Positions 1 to 5,450 of a DNA stretch of 41,290 bases are shown here, one piece after another. The stretch spans positions 1 through 41,290 of the forward strand of contig JARIGM010000021.1 in the NCBI GenBank assembly GCA_029288865.1. Direction: 5' to 3'. Below the pieces are notes generated by a model, which ran no database searches, had not been told where the DNA came from, and saw only the letters and a list, made by a program, of their open reading frames with translations. This DNA is from Candidatus Kaiserbacteria bacterium. GTDB taxonomy: Bacteria > Patescibacteriota > Minisyncoccia > Phycocordibacterales > Phycocordibacteraceae. The translations under genes and the position numbers were made by a program. Position 1 is the stretch's first letter. Each line of letters begins with the position of its first letter.

Positions 1-141
1 ATAGCTGAGGAAACCTTGATCTTTCGACGTGCGGGGTTCTCACCCGCATTGTGGTTACTTGTACCTGCATTCTCACTTCCGTACGCTCCACCGTGGGTCA
101 CCCCTTGGGCTTCATCGCAGAACGGAACGCTCTCCTACCGC

Positions 142-662
142 TTGTGCATTTCATAGAGGGCACGAGTGTTGTTTGAAAGAACATGAAATATGTCGCAAAT
201 GACTGGACTCGAACCAGTATTCCTGCGCTTGATGGCAGTGCTCTACCATTGAGCTACATTTGCACATATTCAGAAACACACTCGCACCAAACGAAAGCGA
301 AGACAGAGGTGTAATGGCATTACGATGGTTCGTTTCTTTAACGCGGTCGAGCTTCAGACCACAACTTTCAACCTTCTCCAGCTGATCGTCAAAACGAATT
401 CCCACCTTGATTTTTACTTCTGATTCTCATCATCAGTGAAATCACGCTCACAGTGAAGTTTGGACCTCCCCTGTTTCCCCACAAGTTTTTACCGAACATT
501 CACCGCGACACACTGATCCGCGATTACTAGTCCTACTTATGAGATTCATATTACACATCTCGATGATTTAGGTCCGTTAGAACCTCTGTTTCTCGAGACT
601 CCTTTTCAGGACTCCGCCTGCTCTTGAGAGTATCCATCGGACACCCTCTATGAAATGCACAA
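142..662 (-). ncRNA. Intervening sequence (IVS) in 23S helix 45, highly structured, apparently non-coding
   Basis: Inserted between conserved ACCGAAACTGCGGG (~664-677) and GGTAGGAGAGCG (~128-139). Closed by the perfect inverted repeat ttgtgcatttcatagaggg (142-160) / ccctctatgaaatgcacaa (644-662). Nested internal stems 163-177/269-284, 303-310/582-589 and 462-467/570-575. Confidence 0.9.
194..263 (-). tRNA. tRNA-like element (pseudo-tRNA, ambiguous anticodon CAA/TCA) inside the 23S IVS
   Basis: GCAAATG-TA-GCTC-AATGGTA-GAGC-A-CTGC-CATCAAGC-GCAG-GAAT-ACTGG-TTCGAGT-CCAGT-CATTTGC-G. Acceptor, D and T stems are perfect; the anticodon arm is 4 bp plus an 8-nt loop; followed by ACA rather than CCA. 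Confidence 0.8.
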
Positions 663-740
663 ACCCGCAGTTTCGGTATGATACTTAACCCCGATCATCT
701 TCGGCGCAAGAACCCTCGATGAGTGAGCTGTTACGCTATC

Positions 741-772
<32 letters not shown>

Positions 773-1341
773 TCATTGTCAAAGGATTCTCACTTCCTTG
801 AGTTGTACTCAGTATCAATTTAGGGACCTTAACTGGCGATCTAGGCTCTTCCCTTTTTGACTCATGGAGCTTCGCCCCCATAGTCTAACTGCCATGCTGT
901 AACTTCCGGTATTCGGAGGTTGATAGGAATGACGAGATTTCTCCCTGTTCATCCCTTCCAGTGCTCTACCCCCGGAAGGATCACATGACGCCAGCCCAAA
1001 AGCTGTTTCGGAGAGAACCAGCTATTACCAAGTTCGATTAGCTTTTCACTCCTTACCACAGGTCATCCCAACGCGTTGTACGACGTACGGGTTCGGTCCT
1101 CCATCTGTCTTTCGACAAACTTCAACCTGCCCATGGTAAGCTCACTTGGCTTCGGGTCGTATGTATGACACGATCGCGCTATTCACACTCGGTTTCCCTG
1201 AGGCTCCATCCCTTTACGGACTTAGCCAGCGACATACATACACTCGCAGGTTCATTCTTCAATAGGCACGCTGGAATGGATGTAAAACCCACCCCAACCC
1301 TTTGTAAGTACACGGTTTCAGTACTATTTCACTCCCCTCTC

Positions 1342-1387
<46 letters not shown>

Positions 1388-2144
1388 TTAGAAAGTATTT
1401 AGCCTTACCGGTTAGTTCCGGCAGATTCATCCGAGCTATTCATGTCTCGAACTACTCAGGAATAGAAGCACAAAAGAGATTTATATTTCGCGTACGGGGC
1501 CATTACCCTCTGGGGCGTTGCTTCCCAGCAACTTCCGCTATATAGATCCTTTGTAACTTTTGCCATACAAGTATGGAGCTTCTACCCTACAACCCCATAT
1601 ACCGAAGCATATGGTTTGGGCTATCTCCCGTTTCGCTCGCCGCTACTAAGGGAATCGCGAGAGTTGCTTTCTATCTGCTCGAAGCATCGAACAGACAGAA
1701 AGCAACTCGCTGTTGTTTTATTTTCCTCTTGGTACTGAGATGTTTCACTTCCCAAGGTTCGCTCCTCATTCCATACGGAATGGGTAATCCATTAAGGATT
1801 GAGTTTCCTCATTCGGAAATCTTCGGATCAAAGGTTACAAGCCACCTCCCCGAAGCTTATCGCAGGCTAATAACGTCCTTCATCGCCTTTCTAAGCCAAG
1901 GCATCCACCGTGCACCCTTCACGTTTCCTGTGCGGAAACCTGAACACCACAATATCTAATGCAATATCAATTCACGCTATTTCTAGCGGTATTGATTACC
2001 TTTTATACATATTCAGTTTTCAAGGTGCACGTGGACTTTTCAAGAAAAAAGCCGCCTCAGGAGCGGTTAAAAGAGGTCGTTCGACCGTCCTTCATTGACC
2101 CCTCCTAAACAGTGATTTCTTCGTGAATATAGACACGTATAGCG

Positions 2145-2190: not shown

Positions 2191-2748
2191 CTAGTTACAG
2201 ATTGAAAAGTCGCTCTGGGTGCAGCCCTGGGATATAGAGAAAAAAGGGCCGTATAGGTTTGATCCCGCATGGGAATACGGCGGAGCAGTAACCGGTGGTA
2301 TTTCCACGTAATTATTCCATTTCACCCCGGTCTTATTCGGGGCATTCGTTGCGAGATAGGTACTGAGGACATATTTCGTTCCCCCTCCGTTATAGAGATA
2401 CTCCCCGCAATTTGAGCACATGTATCCTTCCCCCTTACCATTATATGGATCGACTGGGAGGGTTGAAATATAGGGAGATAATACCGAAGCCAGACTCGCC
2501 CAGTTCGTCGAGTTTCGGGAATCCACTCCGAGCGAGGGGTATGTGCCATTGTGATCGTCCGCATAGAGGGTCAACGCCGTTGAGATTTGCTTAAGCTGAG
2601 CCTCGCGCTGCGCATCATCGGCTTTCTGTCGGGCATTATTGAGCGACGTGAGAATGACTGATGAAAGAATGCCTATTATCGCGATGACGACAAGCAATTC
2701 TATGAGAGTGAATCCTTTCATTCCTTTACGCTGCAGATTCTTTACCAT
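2191..2748 (-). CDS. Type IV pilin / GspG-like prepilin
   Basis: KG|FTLIELLVVIAIIGILSSVIL N-methylation motif, ARQKADDAQR helix and LPVDP motif; start taken at MVKNLQRKGMKGF. Confidence 0.9.
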   Translation of the reverse strand: MVKNLQRKGMKGFTLIELLVVIAIIGILSSVILTSLNNARQKADDAQREAQLKQISTALTLYADDHNGTYPSLGVDSRNSTNWASLASVLSPYISTLPVDPYNGKGEGYMCSNCGEYLYNGGGTKYVLSTYLATNAPNKTGVKWNNYVEIPPVTAPPYSHAGSNLYGPFFSISQGCTQSDFSICN

Positions 2749-2791
2749 TCTTTCAGAATACCACTGACCTGGAGCTAAATTTATCTTAATC

Positions 2792-2823
2792 AACACAAAA
2801 AGCCCTTTCGGGCTTTTTGTGTT
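2792..2823. terminator. Rho-independent terminator (after the CmpX-like gene)
   Basis: aacacaaaaagccc-tttc-gggctttttgtgtt hairpin with A/T tails. Confidence 0.7.
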
Positions 2824-2841: not shown

Positions 2842-3519
2842 CTAACGCATCTCTTCACGCATGTGCTTGATCGTGTCTGCAGCTGCCTGCTGACCGCCAA
2901 GGCCGAATGCGAGACCGAATGCGAGCGAGAACGCCACCACGACCCCTGTGAAGAGCGTCTGGATGAATGGCGTGACGCCGAGCTGGTCAAGCGCTGCAAG
3001 AAGAGCGAATATCCAGATAGCCCAACGAGCGATCAAACCGAGCAGGTTCGCTGAGCGAACGTTCGCTGCGGCCGCTGATCCCGAGATAACGCGCTGCGCA
3101 GCATTTGCGAGTACTGCTGCAACCATAAGGATAAGCACTGCGATGATGACATGAGGGAGATACGTCAGTACAACAGAACGAAGGAATGCTGTGACATCAG
3201 TGAGACCCAAGATGTCGAGAGATGCGAGAAGGAAAACGATGATAAAGAACCATTTCACCAAGAAGCCGAGGAACGCGCCCGAGTTCAATTTCCAACCAGC
3301 ACGCTCGACGACACGGTCGACGCCGGCCGTACGAAGGGCCTTGTCCACATGTATCGCATGCACTGCCTGCGATACCAAGCGACCGAGCCCAGCTCCGACA
3401 AGCCAGCCGACAACGAAGATGATAATGGCGAACAAAAGGTTCGGAAGGAAAAGCACAAGTCCGTACGCGAGGTTCTGGAACGACTGCGTCAAGACATCAG
3501 CCCACGTAGTAATAATCAT
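2842..3519 (-). CDS. CmpX-like / MscS-associated TM-helix repeat membrane protein
   Basis: Two repeats of FLPNLLFAIIIFVVGWLVG / YLPHVIIAVLIL and C-terminal FGLAFGLGG, typical of the CmpX family. Confidence 0.8.
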   Translation of the reverse strand: MIITTWADVLTQSFQNLAYGLVLFLPNLLFAIIIFVVGWLVGAGLGRLVSQAVHAIHVDKALRTAGVDRVVERAGWKLNSGAFLGFLVKWFFIIVFLLASLDILGLTDVTAFLRSVVLTYLPHVIIAVLILMVAAVLANAAQRVISGSAAAANVRSANLLGLIARWAIWIFALLAALDQLGVTPFIQTLFTGVVVAFSLAFGLAFGLGGQQAAADTIKHMREEMR

Positions 3520-3608
3520 AGTAGTAAAAACGAATCGTTAACGAGCCAAAGGCTGTGTTTATAAAGGCTTCCGCAGGTGAAATGCCTGCCTCTATAAAGT
3601 GTAGCAAG

Positions 3609-4181
3609 CTACTGCATGCCTATCTTGTCGAAGATGACGCGGTGTGGATAGTCAAAAATGTCCCGAACGAGGCGGTCATAGACGCCGACTCGATAACGGA
3701 AATCCTCTGTGGAGAAGGATGCGTACCGCAGTTCACGCCCTAATTCAGCCTCGAGCTCGTGAATAGACTTTTCAAGGCGTTTTTCGTCGAGCTTATCCCC
3801 TACTACTATAATGTCAGCTTTTGTCTCGATAGCACCCGTGAAGAGACCTGAAAGAGTGACCAGGCGCAGATTCCCTGCTTTTTTTATCTCTGTGACAATA
3901 CGCAGATCACCCACTTCTGTCGTATCTCGCAAGAATACCAGGAGCGGTTGGTAGTGAACGAATCGCTTATTGGCGATATAAACTACCCCGTCCTTCCCTG
4001 CCTTCTTGCGAATGATGCGGGACGTGAGCAACACTTTCATCTCTTTTCGAGCAGAGTCCTTCGGGACATTCACGCGGAATGCAGCATCCGTTACCGAGAA
4101 ACCTGCATCGTCATTAAAGAGGAATAATCTGAGAAGCTTCAGTCGAGCTGAAGAACTGAACAAGCGAGCCAAGGGATCCAT
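3609..4181 (-). CDS. Conserved hypothetical protein: winged HTH plus degenerate nucleotidyltransferase-like domain
   Basis: N-terminal LFSSSARLKLLRLFLFN wHTH-like segment; C-terminal SGLF...ADIIVVGD...ELGRELRY resembles the minimal NTase fold; start at MDPL (TAGAAT 7 nt upstream). Confidence 0.6.
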   Translation of the reverse strand: MDPLARLFSSSARLKLLRLFLFNDDAGFSVTDAAFRVNVPKDSARKEMKVLLTSRIIRKKAGKDGVVYIANKRFVHYQPLLVFLRDTTEVGDLRIVTEIKKAGNLRLVTLSGLFTGAIETKADIIVVGDKLDEKRLEKSIHELEAELGRELRYASFSTEDFRYRVGVYDRLVRDIFDYPHRVIFDKIGMQ

Positions 4182-4291: not shown

Positions 4292-4771
4292 TTATTTGAG
4301 GGTAACCTTTGCGCCAGCCTCCTCAAGCTTTGCCTTGAGAGCTTCTGCATCGTCCTTACCGACATTCTCCTTCACCATCGAAGGTGCGCCATCGACAAGG
4401 TCCTTCGCCTCCTTAAGGCCGAGACCAAGGATTTCCTTGACTGCCTTGATGACTGCGATCTTGTTGCCTCCTGCGTCGGTGAGCTCGACATTCATCGTGC
4501 TCTTGCCTTCGTCAGCTGCTGCGCCGCCTGCTGCAGGTCCTGCAACTGCGACAGCTGCTGCTGATACGCCGAACTTCTTCTCGAACACCTTAACGAGCTC
4601 GTTGAGCTCAAGAACGGTCATCGCCTCGATTTCAGCGACGATCTTCTTGAATTTCTCAGGAACTTCAACTGTTGCTTCTTCTGCTGCCGGCGCTGCAGGA
4701 GCAGGAGCCGCTTCCATTTCTGGAGCCGTCTCAACTACTTCTTCAGCTGGAGCTGTTGTTGTCTCATCCAT
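4292..4771 (-). CDS. rplL: 50S ribosomal protein L7/L12 with acidic N-terminal extension
   Basis: [55 protein letters not shown]. Confidence 0.97.
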
Positions 4772-4794: not shown

Positions 4795-5301
4795 TTAAGC
4801 CTTTTTCTCGGCAATCTGATTAAGAACGATTGCGAGACCCTGGATAGGTGAATTGATCACGTTCACGAACATGCCACGGAGAACAGGTACCGGCGGAATA
4901 GTCGCGATGGCATTCATGCCATACGCATCCTGGTACGAGTTCTCGAAGATACCTCCCACGATGGAAAGAGACTCCTTGTGCTTCTTGCTGTGCTCGTAAA
5001 TATTGCGTGCGACAAGCGTCGGATCGCCAGAACCTGCTTCCGCAGAACTCCATGCGATTGCGATCTCTCCAGGAAGCTCAGGCAATGTGCCTGTGTATCC
5101 CTTCGATGAAAGCGCGTGACGAATGAGTGTTTTCTTTGCAACCAAGTACTGTACCCCTTCGCTCTTCAGCGCCTTACGCATCGCGCTCGTGTCCCCCATG
5201 GAAAGTCCCTTGAAGTGCACGAACACGACTGATGCTGCATCAGCAATAGCGTCACCTACCTTTGCGACGATTTCTTGCTTTTTTGCTTTAGTAATTGCCA
5301 T
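4795..5301 (-). CDS. rplJ: 50S ribosomal protein L10
   Basis: KKQEIV...FKGLS...MRKALK...VAKKTL; directly upstream of rplL; start MAITKAKK. Confidence 0.95.
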   Translation of the reverse strand: MAITKAKKQEIVAKVGDAIADAASVVFVHFKGLSMGDTSAMRKALKSEGVQYLVAKKTLIRHALSSKGYTGTLPELPGEIAIAWSSAEAGSGDPTLVARNIYEHSKKHKESLSIVGGIFENSYQDAYGMNAIATIPPVPVLRGMFVNVINSPIQGLAIVLNQIAEKKA

Positions 5302-5324
5302 AGATTGGTGTTGTGTACGAAACG

Positions 5325-5450
5325 GAAAAGCCCCGCTCCTTTGCAGGAAACGAGACCGTGGAGACATCGACGCCTTCTGATCCTGAGATCAGAAGTAGTT
5401 CCTCGGCCGGTCTTCTACTCCCTTCGGAGTTGCCAGCTGTCTTCGGTCCG
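5325..5450 (-). promoter_or_regulatory. L10 leader (autoregulatory cis-RNA)
   Basis: Minus strand GACCGAAGACAGCTGG...CCGGCCGAGG...CTCCACGGTC matches the recalled L10-leader kink-turn consensus, directly upstream of rplJ. Confidence 0.75.

Follow-up and report, generated by a model that had tools for sequence, protein, structure and literature searches.

Helix-45 intervening sequences with tRNA-shaped modules: an apparently undescribed family of inserts in the 23S rRNA genes of Candidatus Kaiserbacteria and related bacteria

Intervening sequences (IVSs) at helix 45 of the 23S rRNA gene are known from Salmonella, Yersinia, Campylobacter, Coxiella and Leptospira. As the classical cases are described in PMC8708148, PMC4990558 and PMC2801512, RNase III excises the insert and leaves the 23S rRNA in pieces with the ribosome unharmed. 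Some of the known IVSs are hairpins of 100-200 nt, according to the account in PMC8708148, and others carry an open reading frame (ORF) for an S23p-type protein, according to that in PMC4990558; why bacteria keep them is said in the former to have been unclear since their discovery. Among bacteria of the candidate phyla radiation (CPR), 77% of 23S genes are reported to contain an insertion of at least 100 nt (PMC9297842, which cites Brown et al. 2015 for the absence of the insertions from transcripts). The sections of that paper concerned with CPR rRNA insertions treat them as introns or leave them unspecified, do not mention tRNA in that context, and describe the content of many of them as largely uncharted (PMC9297842). 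Here we analyzed a 41,290-nt stretch of DNA from a Candidatus Kaiserbacteria bacterium (assembly GCA_029288865.1, contig JARIGM010000021.1, positions 1 to 41,290; hereafter the window), in which a 23S rRNA gene is interrupted at helix 45 by a 521-nt insert. The insert belongs to an apparently undescribed family of helix-45 inserts with tRNA-shaped modules, and we consider it probable, if well short of certain, that it is an RNase III-type helix-45 IVS containing a tRNA-shaped structural or processing module together with relics of rRNA.

The 23S rRNA gene lies on the minus strand, where window positions 1931 to 1 correspond to positions 1-1363 of the 2925-position Rfam bacterial large-subunit (LSU) model (1038.7 bits). 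The contig begins within the gene, and the 3' part of the gene is absent from the assembly, which comprises 842 kb in 36 contigs. In the alignment to the LSU model, window 142-662 forms a single insertion that interrupts the helix-45 hairpin loop between positions 1218 and 1219 of the model (IVS position n is window position 663-n). The two 19-nt arms of its terminal stem (142-160 and 644-662) are 100% complementary, and the outermost ~9 bp of this stem are native helix 45. A preliminary description of this DNA, made from its letters alone, had proposed a perfect 19-bp terminal stem at helix 45, and the complementarity of the arms and the LSU alignment bear this out. The genome contains an RNase III gene (TIGR02191, 257 bits against a cut-off of 166, in a 232-aa frame at G000:C11:21812-22468), and no further copies of the insert were found in it. 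The insert resembles the classical IVSs in its site, terminal inverted repeat, extended stem and sporadic presence, and in the presence of an RNase III gene. It differs from them in being 521 nt long, in having no ORF that matches a family and in that its excision is only weakly hinted at, and the family to which it belongs differs in its cargo of tRNA or tRNA-like modules, in its conserved GUUCUUU motif and in the rRNA look-alikes of a few members. Four of the five features that define a helix-45 IVS are found here, the fifth being excision, and the insert is indeed an intervening sequence at helix 45 of the 23S rRNA gene.

We compared the insert with known RNA and protein families, the former a comparison that the preliminary description had proposed. 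A cmscan search of window 1-830 at E <= 10 identified no group I or group II intron, no GOLLD or ROOL RNA and no other large noncoding RNA family; it returned only the LSU and tRNA models and four chance-level matches (E 2.5-4.3). The sole remaining match is to the small-subunit (SSU) rRNA model (E 0.17). The insert region is overlapped by 15 ORFs of at least 20 aa, seven of them on the minus strand. The longest ORF on the RNA strand (84 aa, with a GTG start) crosses the tRNA-like element described below, the start codon of a 28-aa ORF at 551-637 is not retained in sister inserts (alignment, by eye), and Pfam returned no family at E <= 1 for five of the seven minus-strand ORFs. The earlier claim that the insert holds no convincing ORF thus stands for the ORFs compared with Pfam, and we judge from these searches that the insert is non-coding, being neither an intron nor an ORF-bearing (S23p-type) IVS. 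A blastn search against 100 relatives yielded no full-length relative and only short matches, which lay in 16S genes for query positions 99-165, in tRNA genes for 393-472, and otherwise in the stem of G028 (L, G and X numbers denote loci or inserts of relatives, their genomes, and sequencing runs, respectively).

Inserts at the same site are present in many relatives. Using the 141-nt 3' flank as query in a survey of the genus, we found the 23S region in 84 of 201 genomes and extracted helix 45 from all 84. Helix 45 is a plain hairpin of 22-26 nt in 59 of these genomes and a bare extended stem of 54-56 nt in five; it measures 88-101 nt in three and 182-619 nt in 17. Presence is sporadic among the nearest relatives by flank identity, with 619 nt in G240 (97%) and 24 nt in G169 (96%). 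A scan of one genome per prokaryote species for a pattern comprising the 3' arm and flank produced 32 stretches, 27 of which have both flanks and contain inserts of 50-619 nt (15 identical to known ones and 12 new), and in an even draw of 400 genomes at the level of the order, the stem signature occurred in six other genomes belonging to four other families. The set analyzed below comprises the 36 distinct helix-45 inserts of at least 50 nt, 28 of which are long (at least 150 nt). The carriers are metagenome-assembled genomes labelled as Candidatus Kaiserbacteria, Paceibacterota or Parcubacteria (a few labels are evidently wrong), and one member lies in a complete 617-kb chromosome (G241) that has a full-length 23S gene. 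This distribution indicates a family that is old or mobile, sporadic, and commonest in the genus of the window. The insert is thus not unique but one of 36 inserts with recurrent tRNA-shaped cargo, of a type that we did not find described in openly available full texts. In the same genus, L057, L065/L066, L081, L082 and L085 have helix-45 extensions of 54-101 nt whose stem sequences are unrelated, and helix 45 seems, by comparison of these sequences, to have been extended more than once.

The basal stem is preserved across the family. Stem positions 1-19 are paired in 680 of 684 cells (36 inserts), and pairing falls to 18 of the 36 at position 20. The pair types alternate between inserts, with CG in 19 and AU in 12 at position 6, AU in 17 and UA in 15 at position 14, and GC in 10 and AU in 23 at position 19. 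The constant length of the duplex and its maintenance through compensatory changes indicate that the stem is a selected RNA structure, and such a duplex would be a plausible RNase III substrate.

A second recurrent feature is a tRNA or tRNA-like element near the 3' end. ARAGORN, run on the 23S strand only, reported such an element in 20 of the 28 long inserts. Rfam tRNA matches above the cut-off numbered 14 in 11 of 19 loci and nine in six of six further loci, all on the LSU strand, and the 23 elements of relatives above this cut-off score 32-74 bits. Between the end of the last element and the 3' end of the insert lie a median of 52 nt (range 45-185), the distance to the 5' end being 37-496 nt, and the three outliers in distance carry a second element that is seen by Rfam. 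The 3' tails of the ARAGORN elements are NCCA in 18 of 20 inserts, compared with 18 of the 38 ordinary tRNA genes in the genome of the window (a loose test). Inspected by eye, the module is followed over ~50 nt by a trailer paired with the leader (mostly via the CCA itself), then by a closing hairpin and lastly by the 3' arm of the stem; the 3' NCCA of the tRNA-like elements in the family is thus usually predicted to pair with its own leader. The hexamer GTTCTT, part of the GUUCUUU motif, occurs in 20 of the 28 long inserts, compared with 2.6 expected and a maximum of eight in 1000 shuffles. We considered whether GUUCUUU is a general tRNA leader signal and ruled this out, as it occurs within 60 nt upstream of none of the 39 tRNA genes of the window's genome. 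Taken from these comparisons, the frame of the family appears to be, from 5' to 3', an arm of the 19-bp stem, variable cargo, usually GUUCUUU, one or two tRNA or tRNA-like elements that are co-oriented with the rRNA, and then a closing hairpin followed by the 3' arm. Within this frame, the insert of the window has homology to the other 35 only at IVS 1-66 (shared with four sisters), 134-183 (shared with L037) and 372-521. The preliminary description had named homologues with conserved structure as a check on its proposal, and the 36 inserts, with their covarying stem and module stems, are such homologues. In L098 (141-392), L143, L140 and L162, a Shine-Dalgarno-like sequence and a small ORF are visible by eye upstream of the module, with ~23-30 hydrophobic residues encoded in L098 and L143 and ~75 aa in L162. 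L133, whose helix-45 insert contains a tRNA element found by both Rfam and ARAGORN, also has a group I intron match at 3400-3649, at the 3' end of its 23S gene (51.4 bits, cut-off 50).

In the window itself, the element matches the Rfam tRNA family (RF00005) at 194-263 on the minus, and therefore rRNA, strand with 57 bits (cut-off 29), in agreement with the tRNA look-alike noticed in the first reading of the sequence. ARAGORN labels it 'tRNA-???' with a two-base anticodon, which corresponds to a 6-nt loop; by eye, the anticodon arm has a stem of either 4 bp, with an 8-nt loop, or 5 bp, with a C.C mismatch and a 6-nt loop. A tRNA-type anticodon arm, with a 5-bp stem, a 7-nt loop, U33 and a purine at position 37, is not present in this module, and since the anticodon loop fails this comparison, the module is a tRNA-like element rather than a tRNA gene. 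The discriminator is followed by ACA; absence of CCA would not by itself exclude a tRNA, since only 18 of 38 ordinary genes encode CCA by the same loose test, although the trailer here is paired with the leader. When the cloverleaf is imposed on the fold of the whole insert, the energy cost is 2 kcal/mol. The change from CCA to ACA is matched by changes in the leader that preserve the leader-trailer helix (alignment, by eye), and the constrained fold gives a shifted alternative to this helix in which 265-271 pair with 179-185. Four acceptor pairs have been altered on both sides in the lineage of the window. Among five positional orthologues (the window's own module and those of L037, L039, L097 and L100), 98.8% of stem cells are paired and nine of 16 pairs change two-sidedly. 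The anticodon arms, by eye, differ in all five, with a 7-nt loop only in L097 and a GUAA tetraloop in L037. In a larger set of 15 elements, 96.3% of cells in the acceptor, D and T stems are paired, compared with 70.8% in shuffles and 42-48% in slid controls, and 14 of the 16 pairs change on both sides. These data suggest that the tRNA-shaped module has been kept for its shape and not for decoding.

The anticodon arms of most family elements appear, by eye, to be disabled for decoding, having 6- or 8-nt loops, stems closed by a tetraloop or, in one case, a 39-nt insertion. We considered whether the insert tRNAs might be the sole genes for their anticodons, and ruled this out in three cases: G138 holds a second Ala-UGC besides the insert copy, and the complete chromosome of G241 has ordinary Thr-CGU and Phe-GAA genes besides the insert elements called 'Thr-CGU' and 'Phe-AAA'. 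G189 has two full-length matches (92% and 90%, by similarity only) to the tRNA-Lys-CUU of the window's genome besides the insert copy, and for the Cys element of G181, a genome that is 92% complete, there is no match to the tRNA-Cys of the window's genome at 1e-5. Recent duplication of an ordinary gene was likewise ruled out as the source of the insert tRNAs, since 54-55 of 74-78 positions (~70%) are identical. From these comparisons, the tRNA elements of the inserts appear not to be needed as decoders. Two individual elements are unusual. L088 has an intact cloverleaf at 192-267 (minus strand) with an ACCA end and an 8-nt anticodon loop, for which ARAGORN gives a four-base anticodon, 'ttag'. 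L274, the insert of the G241 chromosome, contains at 163-238 the element that ARAGORN calls Phe with anticodon AAA, which has an unusual first base.

Parts of the inserts resemble rRNA. A local match to the Rfam SSU model aligns window 502-529 with model positions 1336-1363 (14.9 bits, E 0.17), and in blastn comparisons the insert shares 94% with true 16S genes of relatives over 33 nt and 75% over 67 nt (IVS 99-165), such that the likeness is collinear over ~75 nt, beyond a single hairpin, in the manner of a decayed copy. This piece is nearer to consensus-type 16S sequences (the 94% match over 33 nt) than to the 16S rRNA of the same genome, which by eye is more divergent here. Window 480-529 (IVS 134-183) is 84% identical over 50 nt to the insert of L037, an independent assembly, where it occupies the same place and where the surrounding sequence does not align; it was found in no others of the 35. 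The piece does not form a helix-43 hairpin in the fold. The preliminary description had listed several mimics of the 30S head, of which one piece is supported by Rfam and blastn. L037 (146-225) and L051 (130-208) contain an 81-nt look-alike of 23S positions 48-129, 76% identical to the 23S of the window with E ~1e-11. The order of 16S-like before tRNA-like sequence in the window's insert, together with these 23S look-alikes, prompted the idea that the inserts derive from a 16S-spacer-tRNA-23S operon; we dropped it, as the order in L037 (16S-like, 23S-like, tRNA-like) is not collinear with such an operon. Because the 16S-like piece is present in one of 35 other inserts and two sisters carry a 23S-like piece instead or in addition, we read the rRNA look-alikes, by sequence comparison, as captured relics and not as a designed mimic of the 30S head. 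The better preservation of the 16S-like piece than of its surroundings in two inserts is the one point that may favor function, in two sequences only. A scan of metagenomes with a degenerate 19-mer at the 16S-like junction, a pattern that is too short and narrow, returned 96 stretches, none with 16S-like context, and the very high read depth at window 449-576 corresponds to the true 16S of other bacteria.

The insert as a whole is predicted to be strongly folded. The minimum free energy (MFE) of the 521-nt RNA is -185 kcal/mol, compared with -144.2 +/- 6.4 for 100 shuffles (z = -6.3), none of which was as good. The fold contains an inner stem around the tRNA-like module (278-288 with 159-169, continued by 274-277 with 171-174). 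Nested long-range stems had been proposed from the sequence, and the pairing of 163-177 with 269-284 stands, in the fold and through compensation in sisters. The proposed pairings 303-310/582-589 and 462-467/570-575 are perfect complements of 8 and 6 bp, respectively, and occur neither in the MFE structure nor in any homologue, which leaves them unsupported. A GNRA-type GAAA hairpin, which had been written in the RNA sense, is present at 595-615, where 4 bp carry the GAAA loop and are followed by a G.G mismatch and three further pairs; its shape recurs with changed pairs in the sisters L097 and L039 (alignment, by eye). The coordinates of these features are collected in Table 1. We interpret the copy in the window as a long, derived variant in which the module, with its CCA gone and its anticodon loop of 6 nt, retains all its other stems through compensatory changes, to judge from the alignments, and the 16S-like piece and the unique 190-nt interior as captured or decaying filler.

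Table 1. Positions of the 23S gene, the helix-45 insert and its parts in the window
Feature	Position	Strand	Basis or remark
5' part of 23S rRNA gene	1..1931	-	Rfam LSU match; gene truncated by contig end at window 1
Helix-45 region with 521-nt IVS	142..662	-	LSU alignment and inverted repeat
Basal stem, 5' arm	644..662	-	19-nt inverted repeat; covarying in family
Small 5' hairpin atop basal stem (IVS 18-34)	629..645	-	fold; inside block IVS 1-66 common to four sisters
GAAA-loop hairpin with internal G.G mismatch	595..615	-	fold; same shape in L097 and L039
16S look-alike (~16S 1310-1395, around helix 43)	480..564	-	Rfam SSU core 502-529; blastn
Interior without homologue among 35 other inserts	292..479	-	local hairpins in fold; no family match
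Inner stem around tRNA-like module, 5' strand	278..288	-	fold; compensatory changes in L037 and L039
Leader strand of leader-trailer helix prolonging acceptor stem	264..271	-	alignment, by eye
tRNA-like module	194..263	-	intact acceptor, D and T arms; discriminator G; ACA in place of CCA
Trailer strand of leader-trailer helix	186..193	-	alignment, by eye; sisters have CCAUG there
GUUCUUU motif, conserved in family	176..182	-	hexamer count
Inner stem, 3' strand	159..169	-	fold; overlaps basal-stem top by 2 nt
Basal stem, 3' arm	142..160	-	19-nt inverted repeat; RNA contigs identical to window 1-142 end at 142

Public sequencing runs, which were available as assembled contigs from which RNA ends are not readable, were searched with window 1-1900; matches arose mostly via conserved 23S words, and in no run was as much as half of the query's words present. 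RNA libraries of two different studies each contain a contig (441 nt in X1 and 616 nt in X3) that matches window 1-142 with 100% identity and terminates precisely at 142, the stem's last base. A 387-nt RNA contig from X1 covers window 487-630 at ~95%, at a depth of 6.8 (flank contigs, 18-27), and breaks off ~30 nt short of the insert's 5' end. Window 193-448 had no cover in the RNA runs, which is uninformative either way, and loose ends at 142 may exist beyond the 24 of 348 loose-end rows that were covered. This pattern of contigs is as expected from cleavage of the stem and survival of a separate insert RNA, and we regard it as a weak hint of both; release of the insert 1:1 with 23S rRNA is plausible. 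A 703-nt contig from X6, a run that we guess to be of DNA, contains window 1-167, 332 other letters and then window 639-768. Its flanks and the outer 24-26 nt of the insert are identical to those of the window and the interior, 168-638, is replaced, so that the inserts of otherwise identical strains seem to vary in their interior.

In the mechanism that we favor, the insert would be transcribed within pre-23S rRNA, driven by the promoter region of the 23S gene itself. As is known for the classical IVSs, RNase III would cut the basal stem and remove the insert, and the 23S rRNA would be left in two pieces, one of ~1.2 kb and the remainder. The tRNA-shaped module would then steer the fate of the released RNA, most likely as a handle for tRNA-processing enzymes (RNase P, 3' trimming and the CCA-adding enzyme) or as a rigid structural end that determines in which way the excised RNA is matured or degraded. 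The genome of the window encodes an RNase P RNA (114 bits, cut-off 100). For its own copy of the module, we rate the processing handle and the rigid end about equal, because the missing CCA and the closed leader-trailer helix argue against efficient cleavage by RNase P. A bolder version, possible although we doubt it as a whole, would make helix 45 an expression platform: in each round of rRNA synthesis the stem would release a stable RNA, whose anticodon-less 3' tag, mostly ending in CCA, would recruit the tRNA maturation machinery and define, protect or time the decay of that RNA, while the cargo, comprising rRNA mimics in the insert of the window and small ORFs in L098, L140, L143 and L162, would vary and be delivered in fixed ratio to ribosomes.

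Several observations weigh against an IVS with a functional tRNA-shaped module. Eight of the 28 long inserts have no ARAGORN element; L116, one of these, has an Rfam tRNA match, and the four that were among the 19 loci compared with Rfam (L051, L055, L110 and L118) are below the Rfam cut-off. Five species carry the bare stem alone, and the cargo must therefore be dispensable for the role of the stem. The covariation in the set of 15 elements partly reflects descent from different tRNAs, such that constraint in place rests on the five orthologues only, which are few. The module of the window has no CCA, and pairing between its leader and trailer reaches as far as the acceptor stem, so the module should be a poor RNase P substrate. 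Finally, contigs may end at 142 because strains branch there, and RNA libraries may contain DNA.

An alternative reading is that the RNase III stem is simply dispensable and that its tip gathers pieces of strongly expressed RNA genes (tRNA genes and fragments of 16S and 23S) and small ORFs, which then decay and among which the tRNA-like element has no function. The interior turns over fast, with homologues among the 35 inserts only for IVS 1-66, 134-183 and 372-521 and a different 332-nt interior in a contig that is identical in both flanks; rRNA look-alikes are present in few inserts, the insert tRNAs are redundant with ordinary genes, and the stem occurs bare in five species. Decay should, however, strike all arms of a tRNA equally, whereas the acceptor, D and T stems are 96-99% paired and the anticodon arms have been variously rebuilt. 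Nor would such neutral accumulation lead one to expect a module at a fixed distance from the 3' end, NCCA tails in 18 of 20 inserts compared with 18 of 38 ordinary genes, or the recurrence of the GUUCUUU motif and the leader-trailer helix, and we therefore consider it unlikely, although deserving of serious attention. That the insert is not removed at all, and that the mature 50S subunit displays a 500-nt branch with a tRNA-shaped end on its surface, strikes us as quite improbable. Helix 45 is on the surface and tolerates insertions, and ribosomes with an unprocessed IVS are described as functional (in PMC8708148); in addition, the tRNA module caps a long, nearly continuous helix. Against retention, RNA contigs identical to the 3' flank break off at the stem base in two studies, with the interior on a separate, shallower contig, which is weak evidence; the conserved perfect 19-bp duplex is of the kind that RNase III cuts, and the genome has an RNase III gene; and interiors that differ between near-identical strains are hard to square with a role in the ribosome.

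We also weighed the proposal that the released RNA is a mimic or decoy, which would titrate ribosomal proteins, tRNA-binding enzymes, or toxins that target tRNA or rRNA. The 16S-like piece shared with L037 (84% over 50 nt, between neighboring sequences that do not align) speaks for it. The tRNA elbow and acceptor arm, moreover, are read by many tRNA-binding proteins. The anticodon loop, on which anticodon nucleases act, is the least conserved part of the module, making the decoy for anticodon nucleases that had been suggested from the sequence unlikely; furthermore, the 16S-like piece is present in two of 36 inserts and is no family trait, and it folds without a helix-43 hairpin. We hold a mimic or decoy of any kind to be very unlikely. 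Least credible of all is a chimeric assembly in which fragments of 16S and tRNA genes were mis-stitched into a 23S contig. It could be suspected from the 33 nt that are nearly identical to ordinary 16S genes, which draw huge read depth (bins 449-576), and from the start of the contig inside the 23S gene. A perfect inverted repeat exactly at helix 45 would be unexpected in a chimera, however, and a family member is present in a complete chromosome. The junctions, which the preliminary description had singled out as a check for chimerism, are both spanned where 23S meets stem by the X6 contig; the X1 contig, from other data, joins the 16S-like piece to unique sequence of the insert (487-630); and L037, which was assembled independently, shares both the architecture and the 16S-like piece. 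Because both stem junctions and the join between 16S-like and unique sequence exist in independent data, and in view of L037, a chimera is excluded.

Other features of the locus lie outside the insert. Relative to the Rfam LSU consensus, the gene contains a 54-nt insertion at window ~1657-1714 (minus strand), near model position 228, where RNA contigs of other organisms skip 58-74 nt, and a 19-nt insertion near model position 314. The ORF immediately upstream of the 23S gene (2191-2796, minus strand) has a hydrophobic N-terminal segment, which we take to resemble a type IV pilin or pseudopilin signal, and ORFs 4292-4771 and 4795-5367 resemble, by eye, ribosomal proteins L7/L12 and L10. Among the 38 ordinary tRNAs that ARAGORN found in the genome, one has the anticodon CAU and none is a tRNA-Ile-UAU; at least one of the initiator tRNA-Met, the elongator tRNA-Met and tRNA-Ile2 is unassembled or undetected.

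The module bears likeness to three further systems in which tRNAs or tRNA shapes are part of longer RNAs. tRNAs in the 16S-23S spacers of bacterial rRNA operons are co-transcribed with rRNA, flanked by processing stems, and freed by RNase III, RNase P and 3' trimming. The present tRNA-shaped elements would likewise be transcribed with rRNA and flanked by stems for processing, but they lie inside the 23S gene, are mostly non-decoding and duplicate ordinary genes; moreover, the 23S gene of the window is not linked to a 16S gene, having a protein ORF upstream and the 16S gene on another contig. In mascRNA, at the 3' end of MALAT1, and in the tRNA punctuation of mitochondrial transcripts, a tRNA shape marks cuts by RNase P and RNase Z. 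These have in common with the module a tRNA shape without decoding role in a long transcript, although they are eukaryotic or organellar and the leader-trailer helix of the window's insert may hinder cleavage at its module, itself a hypothetical event. The 3' tRNA-like structures of plant viruses, or 'genomic tags', are tRNA-shaped domains with CCA near the 3' end of the RNA. The 45-80 nt that follow the present module would, in contrast, need trimming, the copy in the window has no CCA, and nothing indicates a role of the module in aminoacylation or replication. In openly available full texts, we found no description of a tRNA or tRNA-like element inside a 23S IVS and no bacterial rRNA example of a tRNA-like processing signal; the preliminary description had likewise known of no IVS of this kind.

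Together, these inserts offer a testable anatomy, composed of a covarying 19-bp stem, a non-decoding module selected for shape, and a conserved motif. On a practical level, tRNA finders will call spurious or supernumerary tRNAs within the 23S genes of these genomes, and the 16S-like piece in the window draws 16S reads, a possible source of error in assembly and binning. Should the module be a processing handle, this would be the first bacterial rRNA to borrow tRNA enzymes from inside the gene for its maturation or fragmentation. If it is instead a tag on the released RNA, the transcription of rRNA would at the same time serve to deliver other RNAs, and an expression platform at helix 45, if true, would be a bacterial counterpart of tRNA-like 3'-end formation that links ribosome synthesis to other RNAs. 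The insert family thus suggests an unusual route for cutting rRNA, or for launching other RNAs from it.

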